Translations under genes and position numbers: made by a program | The notes under the pieces: generated by a model | What the model was told of the DNA's origin: nothing | The model's database searches: none | What the model saw: the letters and a program-made list of their open reading frames with translations, nothing else | Shown: positions 6,558-16,604 of the stretch, piece by piece | Layout: every line of letters starts with the position of its first letter | How positions within the stretch are numbered: the stretch's first letter is position 1 | NCBI RefSeq assembly: GCF_001049895.1 | Contig: NZ_CVPE01000006.1 | Span: 672,503-704,502, forward strand | Direction of reading: 5' to 3' | Length of the DNA: 32,000 nucleotides | Source of the DNA: Rubeoparvulum massiliense | GTDB taxonomy: Bacteria > Bacillota > Bacilli > Rubeoparvulales > Rubeoparvulaceae

Positions 6558-7496
6558 TTGGCCAAGCAACCAGTAGCGTATGGAGGACAGGCCGTCATCG
6601 AAGGCGTGATGTTTGGTGGAAAGCATTCTACAGTAACAGCCATTCGCCGAAAGGATCGGTCCATCGAATATTTTTCATTACCTAAAAAAAGTTATAAAGG
6701 CTGGTATGCCAAAGCGCGAAAAATTCCATTCCTCCGAGGAATTTTTGGGATTATCGAAGCCAGTGCCAACGGCTCAAAGCATCTTAATTTTGCAGCAGAA
6801 CGCTATGACGTTGAGCCTGGTGAAGAGGAGTATACACCGCAGGAATCATCAAAACTGGTAGAAATCTTGGGAATTGCTGTGGTTGGGGTTCTTTCCTTCT
6901 TCTTTGGTAAGCTTTTATTTACTGTGGTTCCCGCTTTACTAGAGGAGTATCTCTTTCGTACCTTTCCCCTCAGCTTTGTCATTCATAATTTGATTGAGGG
7001 TGGTATCAAAATTATCCTGCTCCTGATCTATCTATTTGCCATCAGTCGTACACCCATTATAAAACGACTCTTTCAATATCATGGGGCTGAGCATAAGGTG
7101 ATCAATGCTTTTGAGGCAGGGAAGGATCTGACCGTAGCCAATGTCCAAGCAGCAAGTCGCCTTCACTACCGCTGTGGCAGTAGCTTCATCATTTTTAGTG
7201 TACTTGTGGGTGTAGCGATCTACTCCTTCTTTGAATGGGATAGTACTTGGGAACGGATCTGGATCCGCATCCTCTTGATTCCTGTAGTACTTGGTGTATC
7301 CTATGAGGTCTTACAATTAACCAATAAAGTGCGGGATATCCAAGGATTACAGTGGCTAGGATATCCTGGCCTCTGGCTCCAATATCTAACCACTAGTGAA
7401 CCTACCGATGACCAAGTAGAGGTATCTATCGCCTCATTCAACAAAATGAGACAAATGGAAATGGAGTATGATGCAGATAATACATTCGTTATCTGA
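6558..7496 (+). CDS. DUF1385 family membrane protein (YqhQ-like)
   Basis: 312 aa. The N-terminus AYGGQAVIEGVMFGG and the YHGAEHKVI motif are characteristic of DUF1385/YqhQ. TTG start with aaaggttggtga upstream. The position matches yqhQ synteny. Confidence 0.85.
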   Translation: MAKQPVAYGGQAVIEGVMFGGKHSTVTAIRRKDRSIEYFSLPKKSYKGWYAKARKIPFLRGIFGIIEASANGSKHLNFAAERYDVEPGEEEYTPQESSKLVEILGIAVVGVLSFFFGKLLFTVVPALLEEYLFRTFPLSFVIHNLIEGGIKIILLLIYLFAISRTPIIKRLFQYHGAEHKVINAFEAGKDLTVANVQAASRLHYRCGSSFIIFSVLVGVAIYSFFEWDSTWERIWIRILLIPVVLGVSYEVLQLTNKVRDIQGLQWLGYPGLWLQYLTTSEPTDDQVEVSIASFNKMRQMEMEYDADNTFVI

Positions 7497-7514
7497 GTAA
7501 AGGAGTTGGACAGT

Positions 7515-7820
7515 ATGGGTAAGAAAAATCAAGTTTTCTTGGCCATCCTTCTCATTCTCTCTGCTTTCGGACTGATTTGGACATTGATCTATGATGCAAA
7601 ATCTCTCCTTATCCAAATCACAGCCATCCTCACTGCCTTCGCCTTGCTCTATTTAATCTTTCGCAGTCAGAATAAGCGACCATTTCACAAAACTGACCCT
7701 TATAATGCTGCACTTCGGCGTCAACAGAAAAAAACGCATACTCACAAGGAGCATGTCGCAAGAAGCAGAAAAAGGACAAAAGAGTATCCCTTCAAAGTGA
7801 TTGATGGAAACAAAAAATAA
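7515..7820 (+). CDS. Small membrane protein (positional equivalent of yqhP)
   Basis: Two predicted TM helices (VFLAILLILSAFGLIWTLIY; IQITAILTAFALLYLIF) followed by a basic tail. I prefer ATG 7515 (AAGGAG at 7500-7505, 9-nt spacing) to the track TTG 7506. Confidence 0.6.
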   Translation: MGKKNQVFLAILLILSAFGLIWTLIYDAKSLLIQITAILTAFALLYLIFRSQNKRPFHKTDPYNAALRRQQKKTHTHKEHVARSRKRTKEYPFKVIDGNKK

Positions 7821-7848
7821 CGCAGAGGTGAATATTCATCTCTGCGTT
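7819..7848. terminator. Bidirectional hairpin between convergent genes
   Basis: AACGCAGAG (7819-7827) pairs with CTCTGCGTT (7840-7848), followed by tc ttat. It lies between the 7820 stop (+) and the 7851 stop (-). Confidence 0.6.
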
Positions 7849-7850
7849 TC

Positions 7851-8777
7851 TTATACTGGACGGTAGCGCTCTTCCTGCCGCGCTTGGTAAACTGGAAAAG
7901 ACCAGTCGAACAAAAATCGTTCCGCTGCTTCCCTCCCCTGTTCAATCAGCCAATGCTGCTCCTCCTCACTCAAGCTAAACTGTGTTGCACGAATCGAACC
8001 TGTAGGAATAAAGATGGTCCGCAACGCATCCATGGACTGTACATACCGTTCATCATGTGCATCACGCATGGTGGCGAGAATTGCCTTCATGTAGGAGAAG
8101 AAGTGGGTAATACGCATGGTGGAATTGGGCGCTGATCCCTTCGTGGCAACACGAAAGCCAAAGGTTGGCCAACGAGGCTTCGTAGGCTGATCAAATAACC
8201 AAACGGGGTAGTTGCTGGTCACTCCTCCATCTACCAGCCAATTTACCTGACCTTCTAGTTTTAGTGGTACAGGCTCAAAGAAAAAGGGAAGGGCGCAGCT
8301 AATGCGAATGGCAAAGGCTACAGAGATCTCTCCTGGTTCCTTCCCTATTTTGAGCAGATCATCTGGCCAGACCATCATTTGCTGAGTAGAAATATTGGAG
8401 ATGATCACCTTCAATCGATCAGGTGGTAGATCGGCAAATGTCTGGATTCCCTTGTGCATTAGATGCTGATTAAGCCAATTCTCTAAGCCAGTTCCCTTAT
8501 AGATACCCTTCTTGACCAACAGACGAAGATTCTTACCGAGATAGGGTACATAATGAATCCATTCCTTTTTAAGCAGCTGTGGTAACTGTAATTGGCTCAT
8601 AATCTTTTCTAGTTCTTTCCCGTTATACCCTGCTGCTAACATGCCTGCCACAATGGACCCTGAACTGGTTCCAGCCAAACGATGCCAATGAAAGCCTGCA
8701 TGCTCTAGCATTTGTACTGCACCTACAAATGCGATTCCCCGTACACCTCCCCCTTCAAAGACAGCATCCACCTTCAA
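7851..8777 (-). CDS. Patatin-like phospholipase (YqhO-like)
   Basis: 308 aa with the oxyanion motif GGGVRG, the nucleophile elbow GTSSGS (GxSxG) and a DGG Asp motif (LVDGGV). TTG start with GGAGGGGG upstream. Confidence 0.9.
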   Translation of the reverse strand: MKVDAVFEGGGVRGIAFVGAVQMLEHAGFHWHRLAGTSSGSIVAGMLAAGYNGKELEKIMSQLQLPQLLKKEWIHYVPYLGKNLRLLVKKGIYKGTGLENWLNQHLMHKGIQTFADLPPDRLKVIISNISTQQMMVWPDDLLKIGKEPGEISVAFAIRISCALPFFFEPVPLKLEGQVNWLVDGGVTSNYPVWLFDQPTKPRWPTFGFRVATKGSAPNSTMRITHFFSYMKAILATMRDAHDERYVQSMDALRTIFIPTGSIRATQFSLSEEEQHWLIEQGREAAERFLFDWSFPVYQARQEERYRPV

Positions 8778-8830
8778 TGGTACGCCCCCTCCCCTACGCC
8801 TTACTACTATTTATGTAGGTGGAGGTAAGT

Positions 8831-9859
8831 TCATGTAAAATACTCAGTCACTGCCTCAGGAAAGTAAGCTTGAATCTGTCCACGAAAAAACTCCTCTAGC
8901 TCATGTAGATCTTGTTTAGGATACATATACTTAACGCGTCCATAACGTCCCCACTTCTTCTCCCGCTCCTCTTCATTCATCTCCAGTGAGGTCCTGGGAT
9001 AGTGCTGAAGAATAATATTCTTCGCTGTCATGGTATAGCGATGGCTGATCAATTCGAAGGTGATCGGTTCCACCACCTGTGCTTGCAGCTGTTCTGCCAT
9101 TTTCTCGAACATCTCTGTATAAGCGTCACGCCATTCGGGAAAGCGGAAGATCGGGGCAATTATAAAACCCAGTGGATAACCTGCTTGCGCCACTTGATTA
9201 GCCGCAGCGATACGCTGTTCCAAGGAGGAAGTATTGGGCTCGAACTGCTTCGTAATCGTGGCAGCATTCATACTGAAGCGAAAGCGAGTATGCCCTTGAT
9301 GTTCAATCCTTAATAATGGTTCCACCCAATGATACTTCGTGACAAAGCGGAGACGGCCCAAAGGCTGCTCAGCGAAGAACTGAATAGCCTTAGCCAAGTT
9401 ACCAGTAAGATGCTCAAGACTTAAGGGATCTGAGGTACATGCCGCTTCGAAGCGCGTCACCTCTGGTGCCCGTTCGTTGATGTACTTCGCCGCTTGTTCC
9501 AAGATTTCATCGGTGTTCACATAGATCCGAAGATAGGGCTTCTTACCCATGGTGGACTGAAGATAGCAATAATGACAGTGACCCATACAGCCTGTAGCAA
9601 GAGGAAGTGCATATTCAGCTGAAGGTAAGGAGGGTTCGAATTTGAGGGTATGACGTACACCGATGACCAGCGTACGTTTTGCATTACGATACTGTTCTAA
9701 TTCTGTCTCACCTGGAATTCCTCGTACCTGGTTATGCGAGGTGGTTTTCTGAATGGGGATATTGAGCTTACGGAAGTATTGGTAGAGCTCCTTCCCTAAG
9801 GGATACTCTAAGCTGGCTGGCTCAAAGAAAACCCGGTCTGGTTGAAATGGAAGTCTCAC
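8831..9859 (-). CDS. splB: Spore photoproduct lyase (radical SAM)
   Basis: Radical-SAM CX3CX2C motif (CMGHCHYCYL). About 340 aa, colinear with SplB (N-terminal ..PF.P..V..EP..LEYPLG.EL). I prefer GTG 9859 (GGAG 8 nt upstream, giving MRLPFQPDRVFFEP) to the track start 9868. Confidence 0.92.
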   Translation of the reverse strand: MRLPFQPDRVFFEPASLEYPLGKELYQYFRKLNIPIQKTTSHNQVRGIPGETELEQYRNAKRTLVIGVRHTLKFEPSLPSAEYALPLATGCMGHCHYCYLQSTMGKKPYLRIYVNTDEILEQAAKYINERAPEVTRFEAACTSDPLSLEHLTGNLAKAIQFFAEQPLGRLRFVTKYHWVEPLLRIEHQGHTRFRFSMNAATITKQFEPNTSSLEQRIAAANQVAQAGYPLGFIIAPIFRFPEWRDAYTEMFEKMAEQLQAQVVEPITFELISHRYTMTAKNIILQHYPRTSLEMNEEEREKKWGRYGRVKYMYPKQDLHELEEFFRGQIQAYFPEAVTEYFT

Positions 9860-10057
9860 TCTATCCACTCCTTTTACCCTTTATGTTAATTGGTGATGTG
9901 CTTGTACTTCATAGTAGGATTAGGTCTTCCCCTACATCATCACCTTCATACATAATCAGCACTCCCAGATTTGGGCTAGGGATTGGGCGTTTGTCTCATG
10001 GCTAATTGGGTAAATCCCACATAAATTGATAGTGGAAATGCGAAAGGAGGGAAGGAT

Positions 10058-10156
10058 ATGTCAGCTTGTGGAGGCGGAGGTTATGGCGGAGGGTTTACTC
10101 TCATCTTGGTTCTATTCATCCTGTTAGTGATTATCGGTGCATCACTATATGCCTAA
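10058..10156 (+). CDS. YjcZ-like small sporulation membrane protein (32 aa)
   Basis: Below the track's size cut-off. ATG 10058 is preceded by GAAAGGAGGGAAGG. The product is MSACGGGGYGGGFTLILVLFILLVIIGASLYA, a Gly-rich head plus one TM helix as in the YjcZ family. A hairpin (GGGCGGCTGTATAGCTGCCC) follows. Confidence 0.6.
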   Translation: MSACGGGGYGGGFTLILVLFILLVIIGASLYA

Positions 10157-10225
10157 TGGAGCTGGATGAACATAAGGGCGGCTGTATAGCTGCCCTATTT
10201 CATTGATCCTAAAAAAGCGGTCAAA

Positions 10226-10257
10226 AAAACAGCTTCAGATGATTCTGAAGCTGTTTT
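10226..10257. terminator. Bidirectional rho-independent terminator (csp / yjcZ-like)
   Basis: AAAACAGCTTCAGA (10226-10239) pairs with TCTGAAGCTGTTTT (10244-10257). A-run and T-run flanks give a U-tail on both strands. Confidence 0.75.
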
Positions 10258-10280
10258 ATACGTTAGTATTCAAACTCGGC

Positions 10281-10481
10281 TTATAGTTTAGTTACGTTAG
10301 CAGCTTGAGGTCCGCGTTCACCTTGAACGATTTCAAAGCTTACTCGTTGGCCCTCATCCAGTGTTTTGAAGCCATCACCTTGGATTGCAGAGAAGTGTAC
10401 GAATACATCGTCCCCACCTTCAACAGCGATAAAGCCATAGCCTTTTTCTGCATTAAACCACTTAACGATACCTTCTTGCAT
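10281..10481 (-). CDS. Cold-shock protein (CspA family)
   Basis: [18 protein letters not shown]...DVFVHFSAI carries the RNP1/RNP2 motifs. The 66-aa product starts at ATG 10481 with AGGAGG 8 nt upstream. The track's 5' extension to 10508 is rejected. Confidence 0.95.
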
Positions 10482-10589
10482 TTTCAATTTCCTCCTAACG
10501 CCTTGCACGTTCGTCGTGCAAAAACCTTGAATTTACTTATCAAACAAGGTGAACTCCATACTGGATTTGAACCCTATCTGACTACGATT

Positions 10590-10618
10590 AATATACTATG
10601 TTTCATGGGAGAAGTCAA
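10590..10618 (-). promoter_or_regulatory. Sigma-A type promoter of the csp gene with a long 5' UTR
   Basis: The reverse strand reads TTGACT-17 nt-TATATT (complements of 10613-10618 and 10590-10595). It is followed by a ~100-nt leader containing the hairpin TTGCACG-acgaa-CGTGCAA, as is typical for csp leaders. Confidence 0.5.
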
Positions 10619-11046
10619 ACCCAATGTGATGCAAAGGCATGAAAAATAACCACTATTTTCTTTAGAAATATCTGGCATCATGAACCTTTTTACAACACTT
10701 TGGTTTTGTATATTATGGTTCAAAATCCAACTTTGATCATCTTGCCTTGTCTTGACTCCATCATAAGTTTTCCCCTGAAATAGCATTTCATACGTATATT
10801 AGTCCACCTAAAGATTTCCATATTGATCATCTGAATTTCTCCTAACTCAAACAATATTTTTCTTACATATCTGTTTTATTTTTACTTACGTGAAATGTAT
10901 CACTTATCAGGAATATTAACGTGTTCCTCCATTTTCGAGCATCCAGAATACTCCATATTTCTTCCTAAATAATGGTGAGTGGTAAGGATTACCAACCCTT
11001 AACCAGAAAAACTCATGTTAGAATGCTAGGCAAGGAGGAGATGTAA

Positions 11047-11552
11047 ATGAACAGCAAATTCAAAAAGATGATTCTGGTACTCGTGTTCTTTTTGGAATCC
11101 TGGCCACATTTCCAATGCCTAGTCATGCAGCTACTGCTATACAAAGCAGTAGTACTACAAATCAGCTCATACAATTTGGGCTACGTTATCTAGGAACCCC
11201 CTATGAATTTGGCTCTAATCGTTATACCACCACAACCTTCGATTGCTCTGACTTTGTTCGATACACGTATAAGCAAGTGACAGGTATTGTTTTGCCCATG
11301 GATTCTCGAAAGCAAGCCACCTATGTGAAGCAATATGGCCATGATCTTACGACAAAGTGGACAAAGCTCAAAGTAGGTGACATCATGTTCTTCACTTCAC
11401 CAACCACAGGTAAGGTGTACCATGTAGGACTTTACATGGGAAATGGTAAGGTCCTCCATACCTATTCTTTGAAAAGCGGCGGTGTCCGTATCGACAAAAT
11501 TGATGGCACATGGCTAGAACGACGCTTCTATTTTGGCGGTAGTCTCTTATAA
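11047..11552 (+). pseudogene. Secreted NlpC/P60 cell-wall peptidase, frameshifted in the signal peptide
   Basis: ATG 11047 (GGAGGAG at 11034-11040) encodes MNSKFKKMILVLVFF, then leaves the frame at the T5 run 11089-11093. The NlpC/P60 domain ORF (11115..11552, with FDCSDFV catalytic Cys and HVGLY His) continues upstream in a different frame as GILATFPMPSHAATA with no start codon. Adding one T restores a complete signal peptide ending in SHA-A. Confidence 0.75.
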
Positions 11553-11704: not shown

Positions 11705-12580
11705 TTACTTCGCCTCCAGATACTCCTCTAGACAAATTCCTCTTTCTTTGATTTCAGCAGCTACTTCTTTCCCTACGAATCTATAATGCCAAGGCTCGTA
11801 GCCTATTCCAGTAATTTCACTTTTATCAGTAGGATAACGGAGAATAAAGCCGTATTTATAGCTGTTTTCCATAAGCCACTGTTGCTCCGATGTGTTCTCT
11901 TGTGATTGATCAAGATTTTGATTGCTTACAGCAACAATATCAACAGCCAAGCCGAGTTGATGCTCACTGGTGCCTGGTGTTGCTACCCATTTGCCAGCTT
12001 CGATGACAGCATCCTCTTCGGAATAACCTTGAGATTGATAATTCTTAACCTGATTGTTAAATAATCTGGCTTGCTTATCCATTGTGCGATATGAAGAACA
12101 AATGATTGGGGACAAGCCTGCTGCTCTGCAATCATCCATCATCTCCTGTAGATCAGGATAGATTCGCTCATCAACAGATTGACCATTTTTAAGCTGTATT
12201 AGGGTGATATCTAGATCATCGGGAATTGCGTGCCACGGATTGACCAGAACCAAATTCCACCCTTCGGAAGAGGGATTGTTATGATCACTAGTTCTTAATG
12301 TTGGTGTTTTTATCTCAGGATTTGTATTGCTCGTATTCGTATTGCTCGTATTCGTATTGCTCACATTATTATTTCCCGTATTGGTTTGCTCCAAGGTCTT
12401 TTGTTGCTCTTGCGAAGATTCTTCCTGCATCAATGTTAGTACACTTACAATCGCAATGGTACAAAACAGAATACTTATTAAAAGTAGAAGAAGGCTGCTT
12501 TTTTGTCGCCTTGCCTTATGCCCCTGTTTCGAATGCTGCTGTTGCTTTTTTACTGTTTCATTCATGTTTCGATGCCCCAT
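11705..12580 (-). CDS. M15B D-alanyl-D-alanine / LD-carboxypeptidase (VanY/LdcB family), membrane-anchored
   Basis: The C-terminal domain carries SEHQLGLAVDI and the EPWHYRFVG zinc-ligand motifs of VanY/LdcB. There is an N-terminal TM anchor (LLLLLISILFCTIAIVSVLTL) and an Asn/Ser/Thr-rich linker. The start is uncertain (ATG 12580 or 12565), because the track TTG 12616 overlaps a TATAAT-like box. Confidence 0.85.
   Translation of the reverse strand: MGHRNMNETVKKQQQHSKQGHKARRQKSSLLLLLISILFCTIAIVSVLTLMQEESSQEQQKTLEQTNTGNNNVSNTNTSNTNTSNTNPEIKTPTLRTSDHNNPSSEGWNLVLVNPWHAIPDDLDITLIQLKNGQSVDERIYPDLQEMMDDCRAAGLSPIICSSYRTMDKQARLFNNQVKNYQSQGYSEEDAVIEAGKWVATPGTSEHQLGLAVDIVAVSNQNLDQSQENTSEQQWLMENSYKYGFILRYPTDKSEITGIGYEPWHYRFVGKEVAAEIKERGICLEEYLEAK
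12324..12364. repeat. 15-bp in-frame tandem repeat (about 2.7 copies) inside the VanY-like linker
   Basis: GTATTGCTCGTATTC occurs at 12324-12338 and 12339-12353, then GTATTGCTCAC. It encodes the NTSNTNTSNTNTSN stretch. Confidence 0.85.
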
Positions 12581-12752
12581 TTTGTAAAGTCTTGTTTGTA
12601 AATCTTGTTTGATCAATTATAACATGCTAACGTGCCCCAGCGCTTTTTCTTAAAATTCGGTAAGGTGGGAGATATCCTTCACTCAGTTATGCTCATAGAA
12701 TGTATCATCGTGCATGAATTTGGATAAGGGGCATCGATAAGGAGGCATTGGG

Positions 12753-13127
12753 ATGTTACGTTTGATTTGTAAGGGGAAAATTCATCTTGGAACGGTAACA
12801 ACAGCAAAGTTAGATTATGAAGGCAGTATTGCCATTGATTCATCATTGATGGAGCGTATCAATCTCCTTCCATTTGAAATGGTGCAGGTGACCAATCTTT
12901 CCAATGCAGTACGTTGGGAAACATATGCCATTCCTGCACCAGCAGGCTCCTGTGAAATCAGTTTAAACGGCCCGCCTGCCCGTCTTTTTCAGCCCGGAGA
13001 TCGCGTAATCATTCTTAGTATGGCTTACGTAGATGAAGCCGAACTTCCAACGATTCAACCCAAGGTACTCATATTAGACGAGCAAAATCGAATCCTCGAT
13101 CAGCAAGAGCATATCATCCTTAGATAA
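12753..13127 (+). CDS. panD: Aspartate 1-decarboxylase (pyruvoyl-dependent), stand-alone paralog
   Basis: 124 aa, colinear with PanD. All catalytic and processing residues line up by my numbering: K9, H11, Y22, G24-S25 (LDYEGSIAID), R54, T57, Y58 (VRWETY), N72 (LNG). GGAGG SD lies upstream. Confidence 0.9.
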   Translation: MLRLICKGKIHLGTVTTAKLDYEGSIAIDSSLMERINLLPFEMVQVTNLSNAVRWETYAIPAPAGSCEISLNGPPARLFQPGDRVIILSMAYVDEAELPTIQPKVLILDEQNRILDQQEHIILR

Positions 13128-13143
13128 GGAGGAAACACCACCA

Positions 13144-13896
13144 TTGGCAGATGCAATGAAATGGGAAAAGCATCAAATCCTGCAACGAAATTCGCTGCTT
13201 AAAGCAGCCTTGCCACCTACCGAACTCCTCACGCATAAAAGCCTCACCCATTGGCTTAATCAATACGGAGTCGTGATGCTCAAGCCTTCAAGCGGTAGTG
13301 GCGGAGTAGGGATCATCAAAATCTCTTCATTGGGTAATGAACGGTATCAAGTCCACTATGGCCAACTCATACAAAGGTTTCGAAAGAAAAGTGAGCTAGC
13401 GAATTTTATTAAAGCAAGGACTCGCGGACGTACCTATCTGATTCAACGCTATATCCCACTGATTCAAATTGAAAATCGTCCTATGGATATCAGGGTCATG
13501 GTACAGCGCAATCTTCAAGAAATGGGTTCTTGGCATGTAACGGGCAAAGCAGTGAAGATTGCTGGAACAGGCTATGTTGTTACCAATGTCCACCGTAGCA
13601 AAGGAACAGTCCTTTCTCTGGAAGAAGCATTCCAACGCATACAATTGGAAGCTAATTTTACGATGGTCGAGATTCACCAACATTTAGATGAAATTGCACT
13701 CCAAACAGCAAAACAGCTACAAGCCTATTGCCCACGAACTCATAGTATTGGGCTAGATCTGGCTATCGATGGTGATGGGAGGGTTTGGATTATCGAGGCC
13801 AATCTTCGTCCAATGATCGGAATGTTTAAACACCTTCCTGATCAAAAAATCTATGAGCAGATCCGTCACCTTCGCTATCAGCATGAATCCAGTTGA
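13144..13896 (+). CDS. YheC/YheD-family ATP-grasp ligase
   Basis: 250 aa. LKPSSGSGGVGI, IQRYIPL, DIRVMVQ and GLDLAIDGDGRVWIIEANLRP match the ATP-grasp nucleotide/Mg-binding core of YheC/YheD-type proteins. The TTG start lies 17 nt after the panD stop, with GGAGG at 13128-13132. Confidence 0.8.
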   Translation: MADAMKWEKHQILQRNSLLKAALPPTELLTHKSLTHWLNQYGVVMLKPSSGSGGVGIIKISSLGNERYQVHYGQLIQRFRKKSELANFIKARTRGRTYLIQRYIPLIQIENRPMDIRVMVQRNLQEMGSWHVTGKAVKIAGTGYVVTNVHRSKGTVLSLEEAFQRIQLEANFTMVEIHQHLDEIALQTAKQLQAYCPRTHSIGLDLAIDGDGRVWIIEANLRPMIGMFKHLPDQKIYEQIRHLRYQHESS

Positions 13897-13961
13897 GTGC
13901 TCTCGATAGAATAATAACACCCTGAGCTCCATTGAGATGGAATAAGAAAAGGCCAATAGAA

Positions 13962-14007
13962 AGGGGCGTTTCCATCGATCAGATGAACTGATCATGGGAA
14001 CGCCCCT
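13962..14007. terminator. Long bidirectional hairpin terminator (panD operon / nrdJ)
   Basis: AGGGGCGTTTCCATCGATCAG pairs with CTGATCATGGGAACGCCCCT (near-perfect ~20-bp stem). It is followed by cttgttt on + and tttctatt on -. Confidence 0.7.
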
Positions 14008-14105
14008 CTTGTTTAACGAATTGTACATTAATTACCGTCTTTGCGATATTCCTGAGTCTCTGCGAGATTCGCGATCTTTATTATCCTTGCAATAATGACG
14101 ATGAC

Positions 14106-16604
14106 TTAGCATCTTGAATAGCCACAATTAGCGCAGTGCTTACAACCTTCTTCATTGATGAGGGATGCGGAGCCGCACTCTGGACAGAGGTCGAAGCTTT
14201 CTGGTAGGTCATCATCCAGATCTAAAAATTCATCATGCTCTGCTGGCTGGAGGGTAGCTGTCTCTTCTTCATATGCATGATTATGCCTCATCTCCTCTTC
14301 ACCGCCATGGATATGGAATTCTAACGCCTTCGCCACTGCATCAGCCACAGATTCAACACGATTAGGACCAAAGCCTACAGCGCCTGAGCCACCAATTCCC
14401 TTAAGGTGCTTAATCAGAAGATGAGACTTATTACCATTAGGCAGTTCACCAAAGCGAAGGAAGAGCGTGGAAACCCGTCCAAGGGCCTCTGCCATGGCAA
14501 ATACGTCACTACCAGCCTTTCCAACATTGACGATTACTTCAAAGGGCTTGCCTTCAACATCATTGATGGTGATATAGGCTTTCCCCAATGGCGTTACCAT
14601 CTTATAGGTAGCACCCTGGAGCACTTTAGGACGACGGCGGTACTCTTTCCCATTCTCCTCTTGCTTCACTTCCTGTTTCTTCTCATCCTTGGTATCCTTA
14701 CTGGTCAATAATACTTGTTCGTCACGGCTACCATCACGATAGATGGTTACACCCTTACAGCCGAGATCATAGGCATATTCATAGAGTGCTTTTGTTTCTT
14801 CCACGGTAAAATCAGCAGGTGCATTGGCTGTTTTACTAATGGAGGAATCCACCCAACGTTGAATCGATGCTTGGACGCGAATATGATCATCCGCAGAGAG
14901 ATCCATGGCAGTAACGAAGTAATCGGGTACCTCCTCATCAGGATGCTCATCCAGCCAATTTTTCATGATGGGCACATACTGCTTGTCCAAGCCAAGACGG
15001 CTTTGGCGGAAATATTCGAAGGCGTAGTAAGGTTCAATCCCTGTTGAAGTACCAACCATCGTCCCGGTGGAACCTGTTGGTGCTTGGGTTAACAAGGTTA
15101 CATTACGGATTCCCTTCGTACGAATGGCTTCATGCACTTCTGCATCCATCCCTTGTATGAATCCACTTTGTAAATATTTATCCACGTCAAAAGCCTTAAA
15201 AGAGCCCTTCTCTTCAGCAATCTCTGTAGAGGCAAGGTAGGCTTCCTTCGCAATGAAACCATAGAGCTTATCAAGAAACTCTAAGGATTCTGGACTTCCA
15301 TAGCGGATCTTCAATTGGATTAGCATTTCGGCAAGGCCCATACTCCCAAGACCAACACGACGCTCATTCATTTGATTCTTATAATTCTCTTCAAAATGGT
15401 AAGGGGTAGCATCGATGACATTATCCAAGAAGCGGACAGATAGGCGTACCACTTCTCCAAGCTTGTCCCACTCTACCTCGCCATCCTTGACGAATTTGGC
15501 TAAATTTATGGAAGAAAGATTGCAGACACCCCAAGCAGGTAAGCCTTGCTCTGCACAGGGATTGGTGGAGATGATGGGATTAAAATACCAGCTATTGGAC
15601 ATTTTATTGTAGTATTCAAGGAAAACAACACCAGGCTCGGCTGATTTCCAGGCTGATTCAATAATCTGATGCCAGATATGGCGGGCTTTCACGGTTTTAT
15701 AAACGACGACCTTTTTGCCTTGTTCCTTCCATTTATTGAGGTCGCCATCCCAGAGCTCATCATATTCAGGATCAGAGGTGTCGGGGAAGAGAAGATCCCA
15801 TTCCTGATCCTCCTTCACTGCTTGCATGAAGGCATCACTGATGGCAACGGAAAGGTTGGCATTGGTGATCTGTGTATTATCTTGTTTTACCCGGATGAAT
15901 TCTAGTAGATCAGGGTGCCAGTCATTCAACATCAACATCAAGGCACCGCGACGAGAGCCACCTTGCTCGATTAAACCGGTGGTATAACTAAAGAGTCCTC
16001 CCCAAGAGACTGAACCGCTTGAGGAACCATTCACACCTCGTACAAGGGAACGGCGTGGACGTAATGAGCTTAGGTTAATTCCTACACCACCGCCACGGGA
16101 CATAATCTCTGTCATTTCAGAAAGTGTGGCCATAATTCCACCACGGCTATCCTTCGGTGAAGGGATGACATAACAGTTAAAGAGTGTCAATTCATCACTA
16201 GCTCCTGCACCTGCAGCAATACGGCCGCCAGGAACCAACTTCCAATCTTCTAGCAGATAGCGGAACTTCTCGGTCCACTCTTCCTGCTTCTCTGGCTTCT
16301 CCACTGCAGCAATGGCACGAGCCAAACGATCCCACATTTGAACTGGATTGGTCTCTAATGGCTTCATACAATGCTCTTTCTTCACCTTGATCACTTCACC
16401 ACTCCGTAATTGAACATGAACAAAGCCCTCTTCTTTATCGAGAATCTCTCCAACTTCTTTCTTTGGAAATTTGGGGTCGTCCTTGGTTAAAGCAATGACC
16501 GTATCCCCTACATGTAGATTCTCTGCGTCCAAATCCTTCATGGCATAACGATCCAAAAAGATCTTTTCACTAAGACCTTCCAACTGGTACTTCGCTGCGT
16601 CCAT
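14106..16604 (-). CDS. nrdJ: Class II (adenosylcobalamin-dependent) ribonucleotide reductase
   Basis: 832 aa from ATG 16604 (GGTGGAGGTG SD). Active-site finger TNPCAEQ, a long NrdJ-type body, and a C-terminal Cys cluster (CPECGS...CKHCANCGYSRC). The track's 34-codon 5' extension is rejected. Confidence 0.93.
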   Translation of the reverse strand: MDAAKYQLEGLSEKIFLDRYAMKDLDAENLHVGDTVIALTKDDPKFPKKEVGEILDKEEGFVHVQLRSGEVIKVKKEHCMKPLETNPVQMWDRLARAIAAVEKPEKQEEWTEKFRYLLEDWKLVPGGRIAAGAGASDELTLFNCYVIPSPKDSRGGIMATLSEMTEIMSRGGGVGINLSSLRPRRSLVRGVNGSSSGSVSWGGLFSYTTGLIEQGGSRRGALMLMLNDWHPDLLEFIRVKQDNTQITNANLSVAISDAFMQAVKEDQEWDLLFPDTSDPEYDELWDGDLNKWKEQGKKVVVYKTVKARHIWHQIIESAWKSAEPGVVFLEYYNKMSNSWYFNPIISTNPCAEQGLPAWGVCNLSSINLAKFVKDGEVEWDKLGEVVRLSVRFLDNVIDATPYHFEENYKNQMNERRVGLGSMGLAEMLIQLKIRYGSPESLEFLDKLYGFIAKEAYLASTEIAEEKGSFKAFDVDKYLQSGFIQGMDAEVHEAIRTKGIRNVTLLTQAPTGSTGTMVGTSTGIEPYYAFEYFRQSRLGLDKQYVPIMKNWLDEHPDEEVPDYFVTAMDLSADDHIRVQASIQRWVDSSISKTANAPADFTVEETKALYEYAYDLGCKGVTIYRDGSRDEQVLLTSKDTKDEKKQEVKQEENGKEYRRRPKVLQGATYKMVTPLGKAYITINDVEGKPFEVIVNVGKAGSDVFAMAEALGRVSTLFLRFGELPNGNKSHLLIKHLKGIGGSGAVGFGPNRVESVADAVAKALEFHIHGGEEEMRHNHAYEEETATLQPAEHDEFLDLDDDLPESFDLCPECGSASLINEEGCKHCANCGYSRC

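Follow-up and report, generated by a model that had tools for sequence, protein, structure and literature searches.

A conserved pairing of a PanD-like decarboxylase gene with a minimal YheC/D-type ATP-grasp ligase gene in Rubeoparvulum massiliense: a candidate amine-supply and ligation module outside pantothenate synthesis

The window examined here, a 32,000-nt stretch of the Rubeoparvulum massiliense genome (contig NZ_CVPE01000006.1, positions 672,503 to 704,502), contains two adjacent genes, one encoding a PanD-like pyruvoyl-dependent decarboxylase and the other a minimal ATP-grasp amidoligase of the YheC/D type. With moderate confidence, these genes are proposed to form a two-gene module for amine supply and ligation that has no part in pantothenate synthesis and is probably expressed during sporulation. 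An earlier note on this DNA, which put forward a beta-alanine-ligating module, knew of no described function for the pairing, and a literature search likewise found no published description of it or of the function of the PanD-like clade. Cassettes of a decarboxylase with an ATP-grasp enzyme, and clusters of 2-aminoethylphosphonate (AEP) genes with ATP-grasp enzymes, are already known. The host is a spore-former represented by a 97%-complete assembly of 2,843,796 bases; strain mt6 was isolated from the gut of a child (PMC5198730).

Conservation of the pairing was surveyed in one genome per species. Homologues of the ligase were sought by an alignment-based search and the 80 closest loci were kept, mostly from Paenibacillus and Brevibacillus, with others from Cohnella, the Thermoactinomycetaceae and a few Bacillaceae. 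These loci are kin, so that the counts given here are not counts of independent events, and the starts of their open reading frames (ORFs) were chosen mechanically. A PanD-like gene stands directly upstream of the ligase gene, on the same strand, at 43 of the 80 loci (with a gap of 32-127 nt in 42 of them), while genes for phosphoenolpyruvate (PEP) mutase, phosphonopyruvate decarboxylase and a class-V aminotransferase occupy the upstream position at seven loci and neither partner is present at 30. Among 20 further PanD-like genes without a close homologue of the ligase beside them, eight adjoin a longer or more divergent YheC/D ligase gene, in divergent, convergent or reversed arrangements. 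Retention of a pairing through changes of order and orientation is a usual sign of functional coupling, and the association first noticed in a single window is thus borne out in its relatives.

The substitution at the seven loci bears directly on the chemistry. AEP (H2N-CH2-CH2-PO3) carries no carboxylate, and an ATP-grasp enzyme can therefore use it only as the amine partner; beta-alanine (H2N-CH2-CH2-COO) is its carboxylate analogue. Two amine-producing gene sets hold one and the same place in front of homologous ligases. It is most economical to suppose that these genes supply an amine, which the ligase couples to an activated carboxylate. The short ligases without a partner gene (30/80) occur in genomes with a canonical PanD, which is compatible with their use of free beta-alanine as the amine. 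AEP cores flanked by ATP-grasp ligases have been reported from Paenibacillaceae, with the comment that they 'may produce a peptide' (PMC8942020). The AEP genes upstream of the ligase were confirmed by Pfam in one further genome, G033, and the same core was seen in Melghirimyces, Marinithermofilum, Kroppenstedtia, Gordoniibacillus and some Paenibacillus and Brevibacillus. The G033 operon (L036, C1:1519000-1535000; 7405-11359) runs from PEP mutase through phosphonopyruvate decarboxylase and the class-V aminotransferase to a short YheC/D ligase, and continues with a pyridoxal phosphate (PLP) enzyme of the 1-aminocyclopropane-1-carboxylate deaminase family (TIGR01274, 555 bits). PEP mutase was not found by tblastn anywhere in the R. 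massiliense genome.

In the window, the two genes form a compact unit (Table 1). Both are preceded by a Shine-Dalgarno (SD) sequence, that of the ligase gene overlapping the TAA stop codon of the PanD-like gene (13125-13127). The sequence gives a gap of 16 nt between this stop and the TTG start of the ligase, not the 17 nt reported previously; the gene call on record in the protein collection uses an alternative start, ATG 13156, yielding a product of 246 aa. The downstream hairpin folds with -34.3 kcal/mol (z = -6.96), which none of 200 shuffles equalled, and is followed by a weak U-tract (CUUGUUU); it is a probable bidirectional terminator. ORFs, both SD sequences and fold energy agree with the earlier description of one SD-linked unit closed by this hairpin. 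Between position 12617 and the terminator there are only two ORFs, and the unit includes no carrier-protein gene.

Table 1. Features of the two-gene locus and its surroundings, in window coordinates
Feature	Coordinates	Strand	Details
VanY-B/G-like membrane-anchored DD-carboxypeptidase gene (context)	11705..12616	-	divergent; profile matches
CATAGAAT, candidate -10 box of a mother-cell (sigma-E/sigma-K type) promoter	12694..12701	+	conserved CATAnnnT
Shine-Dalgarno AAGGAGG of PanD-like gene	12739..12745	+	7 nt before ATG; read from sequence
PanD-like pyruvoyl-dependent decarboxylase gene	12753..13127	+	124-aa ORF
Shine-Dalgarno AAGGAGG of ligase gene	13126..13132	+	11 nt before TTG 13144; read from sequence
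Minimal YheC/D-type ATP-grasp amidoligase gene	13144..13896	+	250-aa ORF, TTG start
Strong hairpin between ligase gene and convergent nrdJ-like (ribonucleotide reductase) gene	13962..14007	.	folding

The PanD-like gene is the only PanD-family gene in the genome, and the word paralog, which had been applied to it, is wrong for this genome and fits only in the evolutionary sense of a separate clade. PanB and PanC were not found in the genome either by a Pfam search or by tblastn with the Brevibacillus panacihumi proteins, and there is no convincing PanE (ketopantoate reductase), the best ApbA match in the genome reaching 40 bits. A type II pantothenate kinase (Fumble family, 100 bits) is encoded outside the window at G000:C6:560409-561068, while kinases of types I and III were not found in the genome. 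The simplest reading is that R. massiliense imports pantothenate. Since panB and panC are missing while a type II pantothenate kinase is present, the PanD-like gene does not serve pantothenate synthesis, in agreement with the earlier view and with the position of the protein in a clade apart from the panC-linked PanDs. The earlier note had set its proposal against the case of a sole panD gene beside an unconserved neighbour; the gene is indeed the sole one, but the adjacency is conserved, and the proposal survives.

The clade was defined by a tree of 86 PanD-family proteins from the related loci, obtained by a quick search with SH-aLRT support and no bootstraps. The tree separates 22 canonical from 64 PanD-like rows, both branches having an SH-aLRT value of 100, and the window protein falls among the latter. 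The panC gene adjoins 21 of the 22 canonical genes and none of the 64 PanD-like genes, 54 of which adjoin a YheC/D ATP-grasp gene and 32 a ThrC-like gene. The two groups differ, the canonical residue being given first, at positions 6 (Met, Cys), 47 (Val, Thr), 49 (Asn, Leu), 52 (Gly, Ala), 55 (Leu, Trp), 74-75 (Ala-Ala, Pro-Pro) and 79 (Val, Phe). Both kinds occur together in B. panacihumi and others, where a birA-panB-panC-panD locus exists beside a separate PanD-like/ligase pair. Overall, about 55 of 300 sampled genomes of the class carry a PanD-like copy. Three genomes (G242, G252 and G288) keep panC and have a PanD-like protein as their sole PanD-family decarboxylase; as proof that the clade forms free beta-alanine they fail, because their copies carry Ile54 and not Arg54. 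Two other genomes depart from the general pattern. G199 has three PanD-family genes, of which the one belonging to the canonical clade (Ala74-Ala75) adjoins a YheC/D ATP-grasp gene rather than panC (L150, G199:C11:114200-117949). In G261, which is complete in one contig, the sole PanD-family gene is PanD-like with Leu54, panC is missing, and the gene is divergent from a gene for a 369-aa ATP-grasp protein (L132, C1:2905000-2919000).

The PanD-like ORF matches Pfam family PF02261 (Asp_decarbox) with 137 bits (cut-off 25) and passes the TIGR00223 panD model marginally (109.1 bits, cut-off 106). Its AlphaFold2 (AF2) model (pLDDT 92.5) has the double-psi beta-barrel fold and superposes on the solved PanD structures 4CS0, 1PPY and 2C45 with TM scores of 0.84-0.89 and a root-mean-square deviation of 1.5-2.5 A. 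In an alignment, its residue numbering corresponds one to one with that of Mycobacterium tuberculosis PanD (2C45), and K9, H11, Y22, G24-S25, R54, T57, Y58 and N72 are all present. The Gly24-Ser25 self-processing site and K9, H11, Y22, T57, Y58 and N72 are invariant across the PanD-like clade. The catalytic set is complete, as the earlier note had claimed, but its further statement that every residue needed is kept does not hold for the binders of the distal carboxylate. Pyrazinoic acid bound to M. tuberculosis PanD occupies the site of the distal carboxylate of the substrate, and its own carboxylate is held there by Arg54 from the adjacent subunit together with the backbone NH of Ala74 and of Ala75 (PMC6969166). 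The window protein retains Arg54, but its residues 74-75 are Pro-Pro, and proline has no backbone NH, so that both of the NH groups that hold the distal carboxylate are removed; Trp55, Phe79 and Cys6 are further changes in this pocket. The active site thus combines complete catalytic machinery with a specificity pocket that is not that of PanD, and beta-alanine production would be a default assumption rather than a secure one.

The ligase matches PF14398 (YheC/D ATP-grasp) with 201.3 bits (cut-off 26.8) over profile positions 12-246 of 255. As the match spans nearly the whole profile, the protein consists of the ATP-grasp core alone, with no extra domain, and it lacks the N-terminal extension of the long YheC/D forms. 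Seven other YheC/D paralogs are encoded in the genome, most of them longer (about 360-490 aa; six of the seven occupy open frames of 372-487 aa). In a tree with the six long paralogs as outgroup, the short ligases come together in a single separate group (SH-aLRT 95); within this group, the AEP-linked ligases are one clade (SH-aLRT 100) among several PanD-linked clades. Six residues (K47, D115, R117, D205, E218 and N220) are invariant among 75 sequences, and from general knowledge of the ATP-grasp family we take them to be the ATP- and Mg-binding set. AEP-linked and PanD-linked ligases differ at positions 73 (G to E), 127 (an insertion) and 227 (L to H), but as markers of partner specificity these positions are uninformative, the seven AEP-linked sequences being a single clade. 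The 24 homologues found at E <= 1e-30 are named only 'YheC/YheD family protein' or hypothetical, and none of them is a fusion of PanD with the ligase. Four of the eight YheC/D-family matches in the genome stand in tandem at C3:467-472 kb, and another, at G000:C6:816332-817000, is interrupted by a TAA stop, as a pseudogene might be.

For the ligase, sequence comparison detects no solved structure. Its AF2 model (pLDDT 94.9) has the ATP-grasp fold, and the top fold matches in the Protein Data Bank are tubulin tyrosine ligase (TTL), TTLL6 and RimK (E about 1e-9, TM scores 0.56-0.64); weak Pfam matches to the TTL and RimK families were also obtained. Since TTL, TTLL6 and RimK each attach amino acids to carboxylates of proteins, the modelled fold hints, by a small margin, at a protein or peptide acceptor.

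The mother-cell sigma factors E and K characteristically use -10 boxes of the CATA type. Upstream of the PanD-like gene, the element CATAGAAT may be such a box and may serve as promoter of the two-gene unit. Taken alone, the 8-mer is no more frequent in the window than chance predicts, and it gains meaning because CATAnnnT is conserved at orthologous loci, where it precedes the PanD-like gene by 25-75 nt in 42 of 52 non-redundant cases. Shuffled sequences gave a mean of 3.0 (maximum 9), the reverse strand gave 8, and the motif is found upstream of canonical panB in none of 16 cases. The element that the earlier note likened to a sigma-E -10 box therefore stands as a conserved mother-cell-type box, one base away from the coordinates first given, but its assignment to sigma-E in particular does not: the motif is not separable from that of sigma-K, and the -35 region of the window fits neither well. 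The -35 regions of the related loci are heterogeneous, with cACc about 18 nt upstream in many Paenibacillus, which looks like sigma-K, and GGACA-N12 in Brevibacillus. A sigma-70 promoter for the unit was rejected, as no sigma-70-like match was found on either strand in 12550-14150, where shuffles average 3.6. Promoters of sigma-E and sigma-K both have a two-block consensus, and the sigma-E regulon of Bacillus subtilis includes yheC and yheD (PMC517825); proteins of the YheC/D family are associated with the spore coat (PMC7725329). R. massiliense has a gene for sigma-E. A sigK-like gene looks split: its N-terminal and C-terminal halves, at G000:C3:156199-156552 and 162368-162670, share a strand but are separated by about 5.8 kb, as if a small skin-like element lay between them.

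Upstream, the VanY-like and the PanD-like genes are divergent and have a common intergenic region of 136 nt. The cell-wall peptidase neighbours named by the earlier note (VanY-like and NlpC/P60) do exist, with the extent of the VanY-like ORF given in Table 1, but a functional tie to the module is suggestive only. In Paenibacillus, the pair is followed by a gene for a ThrC-like PLP enzyme (NCBIfam PRK08197, 464 bits), with MFS and EamA transporter genes nearby. In Brevibacillus, the extra neighbours encode an Ldh_2 dehydrogenase and a tandem PBP4/S13-like DD-peptidase of 962 aa. Orthologs of the ThrC-like, Ldh_2 and PBP4-like proteins were not found beside the window pair or elsewhere in the R. 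massiliense genome. Genes for DD-carboxypeptidases of two unrelated families thus adjoin the module in two distant lineages, VanY-like here and PBP4-like in Brevibacillus. A peptidoglycan precursor stays a candidate target for this reason, although the adjacency does not by itself count as evidence. Where PanD-like genes have no ligase gene beside them, their neighbours encode CotH kinase, catalase, 2-hydroxyacid dehydrogenase and transporters, which make at most a weak link to spores. In G035 (L122, C1:736000-750000), one such ligase-less PanD-like gene lies two genes from a gene for a CotH spore-coat kinase (6743-9520).

The following sequence of events is envisaged for the module. By analogy with family chemistry, the PanD-like protein would cleave itself at Gly24-Ser25 to form the pyruvoyl group, and the mature enzyme would decarboxylate an alpha-amino acid to a small primary amine, H2N-CH2-CH2-X. 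For the window member, which bears R54, the default reaction would be L-aspartate to beta-alanine, with room in the altered pocket for a related substrate. The 250-aa ATP-grasp enzyme would activate a carboxylate of the acceptor as an acyl phosphate and couple it to the amine, leaving an amide-linked beta-alanyl-type group. The acceptor is probably a spore-envelope component, protein or peptide, and not a free metabolite, and the site is probably the sporulating mother cell; such a target is suggested because a TTL/RimK-like fold, the spore-coat association of the YheC/D family and a mother-cell-type promoter motif are found together.

Several observations weigh against this proposal. Pro74-Pro75 is found in 64 of 65 clade members, as opposed to Ala-Ala in all 21 canonical PanDs, and R54, which is essential in canonical PanD, is replaced by L, I, T or S in 11 of the 65, being kept in 54 including the window protein. 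In view of the proline pair and of the loss of R54 in some members, the PanD-like clade as a whole may not act on free L-aspartate, and the earlier description of the protein as a beta-alanine generator, sound as to its catalytic residues, is not secure as to its product. The window protein is itself atypical, with S50 and E56 in place of the clade-typical R50 and K56, and it sits on a long branch (1.54) in the PanD tree. As regards the ligase, Ddl (D-Ala-D-Ala ligases) and PurK score nearly as well as TTL and RimK, the fold search being unselective, and no acceptor gene is evident in the window. The -35 region of the window fits the spacing of sigma-E and of sigma-K poorly, and the survey counts overstate independent support because the loci are phylogenetically related. 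A bolder version is offered only tentatively, namely that the clade does not act on free aspartate at all and that, together with the ligase, it installs a new amide modification during sporulation, the recipient being either a protein of the spore envelope or a precursor of peptidoglycan and the group beta-alanyl or, in the sister loci, 2-aminoethylphosphonyl.

The order of the two reactions might also be reversed. The ATP-grasp enzyme would then couple aspartate, through its side-chain carboxylate, to an amine or thiol of the acceptor, and the PanD-like enzyme would afterwards remove the alpha-carboxylate, leaving a tethered beta-alanyl group with a free amino end, so that free beta-alanine is never made. 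We regard this as rather unlikely, although the pocket gives it some appeal: Pro74-Pro75 and the loss of R54 in some members are expected if the distal carboxylate is no longer free. The enterococcal D-aspartate ligase is an ATP-grasp enzyme linking the beta-carboxylate of aspartate to a peptidoglycan precursor, and the presence of DD-carboxypeptidase genes beside the module in two distant lineages recalls that system. Precedent exists in closthioamide CtaD/CtaF and butirosin BtrJ/BtrK, where only aspartate or glutamate loaded by the ATP-grasp enzyme is decarboxylated and free aspartate is not a substrate of CtaF (PMC7183216). However, the decarboxylases of the Cta and Btr systems are PLP enzymes rather than pyruvoyl enzymes, the window unit has no carrier-protein gene, and R54 is retained in the window protein and in most of its clade. 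The exchange with the AEP pathway is also simpler if the upstream genes supply the amine.

Slightly less probable is a free small molecule as product, a dipeptide-like compound ending in beta-alanine or a related amine, comparable with phosphonopeptides. Such an outcome would match the peptide proposed for the Paenibacillaceae AEP clusters flanked by ATP-grasp ligases (PMC8942020), and Ddl-type ligases are among the fold matches; in Paenibacillus, the ThrC-like PLP enzyme could make a second building block, with MFS and EamA transporters near. The window unit, by contrast, consists of two genes only, with neither a ThrC-like ortholog nor an exporter. The mother-cell-type promoter motif is conserved, TTL, TTLL6 and RimK lead the fold matches, and the spore-coat association of the YheC/D family (PMC7725329) likewise favours a target in the spore over a free metabolite.

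A change of substrate is more doubtful still. In this case, L-cysteate or cysteine sulfinate would give taurine or hypotaurine, O-phosphoserine would give phosphoethanolamine, or threonine would be used, and the ligase would attach the resulting amine. The pocket is remodelled, and in most clade members R50 and K56 join R54 to give a trio of positive charges favourable to a sulfonate or phosphate group, but the window protein carries S50 and E56. Taurine and phosphoethanolamine both have AEP as their phosphonate analogue. The cysteate synthase of methanogens is related to ThrC, which the ThrC-like neighbour in Paenibacillus recalls, and sulfolactate dehydrogenase is the best NCBIfam match of the Brevibacillus Ldh_2 protein. 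However, the ThrC-like protein reaches only 68 bits with the model of cysteate synthase (cut-off 325), the Ldh_2 protein only 306 bits with that of sulfolactate dehydrogenase (cut-off 500), and the R. massiliense genome has an ortholog of neither. With both proteins below their cut-offs and both genes absent from this genome, the conversion of cysteate to taurine is unsupported; furthermore, no report was found of a pyruvoyl PanD acting on cysteate.

A role in pantothenate synthesis, whether as a housekeeping panD beside an unrelated gene or with the ATP-grasp enzyme replacing PanC as pantoate-beta-alanine ligase, is hardly credible. In its favour, the TIGR00223 model is passed, if barely, and a replacement ligase is conceivable in a genome without PanC. 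Against it, a genome that lacks PanB and a convincing PanE offers no pantoate for such a ligase to use, and Brevibacillus and other genomes carry the module in addition to an intact panBCD. Furthermore, the PanD-like clade stands apart from the canonical one, the decarboxylase-ligase pairing is conserved, the AEP exchange is contrary to such a role, and the sporulation-type motif is absent from panB promoters.

The amine-supply and ligation module favoured here can be set beside several known systems. Compared with PanD of M. tuberculosis (2C45) and Escherichia coli (1AW8), the PanD-like protein has the same fold, length, Gly24-Ser25 cleavage site and catalytic residues; it differs in belonging to a separate clade with changed pocket positions, whose genes have an ATP-grasp and/or ThrC-like neighbour and never panB or panC. 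The ligase shares its family (PF14398) and a spore-forming host with YheC and YheD of B. subtilis, and a candidate mother-cell promoter lies upstream here, but at 250 aa it has no N-terminal extension, belongs to a distinct short clade and is accompanied by a gene for an amine-supplying partner. TTL, the TTLL glutamylases and RimK are the closest folds, and the proposed chemistry is alike, an acyl phosphate being attacked by the amine of an amino acid; sequence identity with the window ligase is 15-19%. In the Paenibacillaceae AEP clusters (GCF 841, 837, 805 and 453; PMC8942020), the ligase is 38-40% identical and of the same short clade, and amine-supply genes likewise precede it, but these clusters use PEP mutase, phosphonopyruvate decarboxylase and a transaminase and usually have two or three ligases. 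Finally, in CtaD/CtaF and BtrJ/BtrK an ATP-grasp enzyme likewise works with an amino-acid decarboxylase, the unit introduced being beta-alanyl or gamma-aminobutyryl (PMC7183216). Their assembly is thiotemplated, with a carrier protein and PLP decarboxylases, and their genes lie in large antibiotic clusters, whereas the window pair consists of two genes with a pyruvoyl decarboxylase and no carrier gene.

These observations have consequences for annotation. The proteins of a sizeable clade, all labelled 'aspartate 1-decarboxylase', probably play no part in making pantothenate and may not use free aspartate as substrate, and metabolic reconstructions would wrongly credit genomes such as that of R. 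massiliense with a capacity for beta-alanine or pantothenate.

YheC and YheD have been listed for some twenty years as spore-coat components and members of the sigma-E regulon and, to our knowledge, no reaction is known for them. A minimal member of the family standing beside an amine-producing enzyme, or in sister loci beside the AEP pathway, names candidate substrates and offers a route into the chemistry of the family. If the proposed amide modification of the spore envelope is true, it would be the first chemistry for the YheC/D family and, should a spore structure prove to be the target, a modification of the spore envelope of a new kind.

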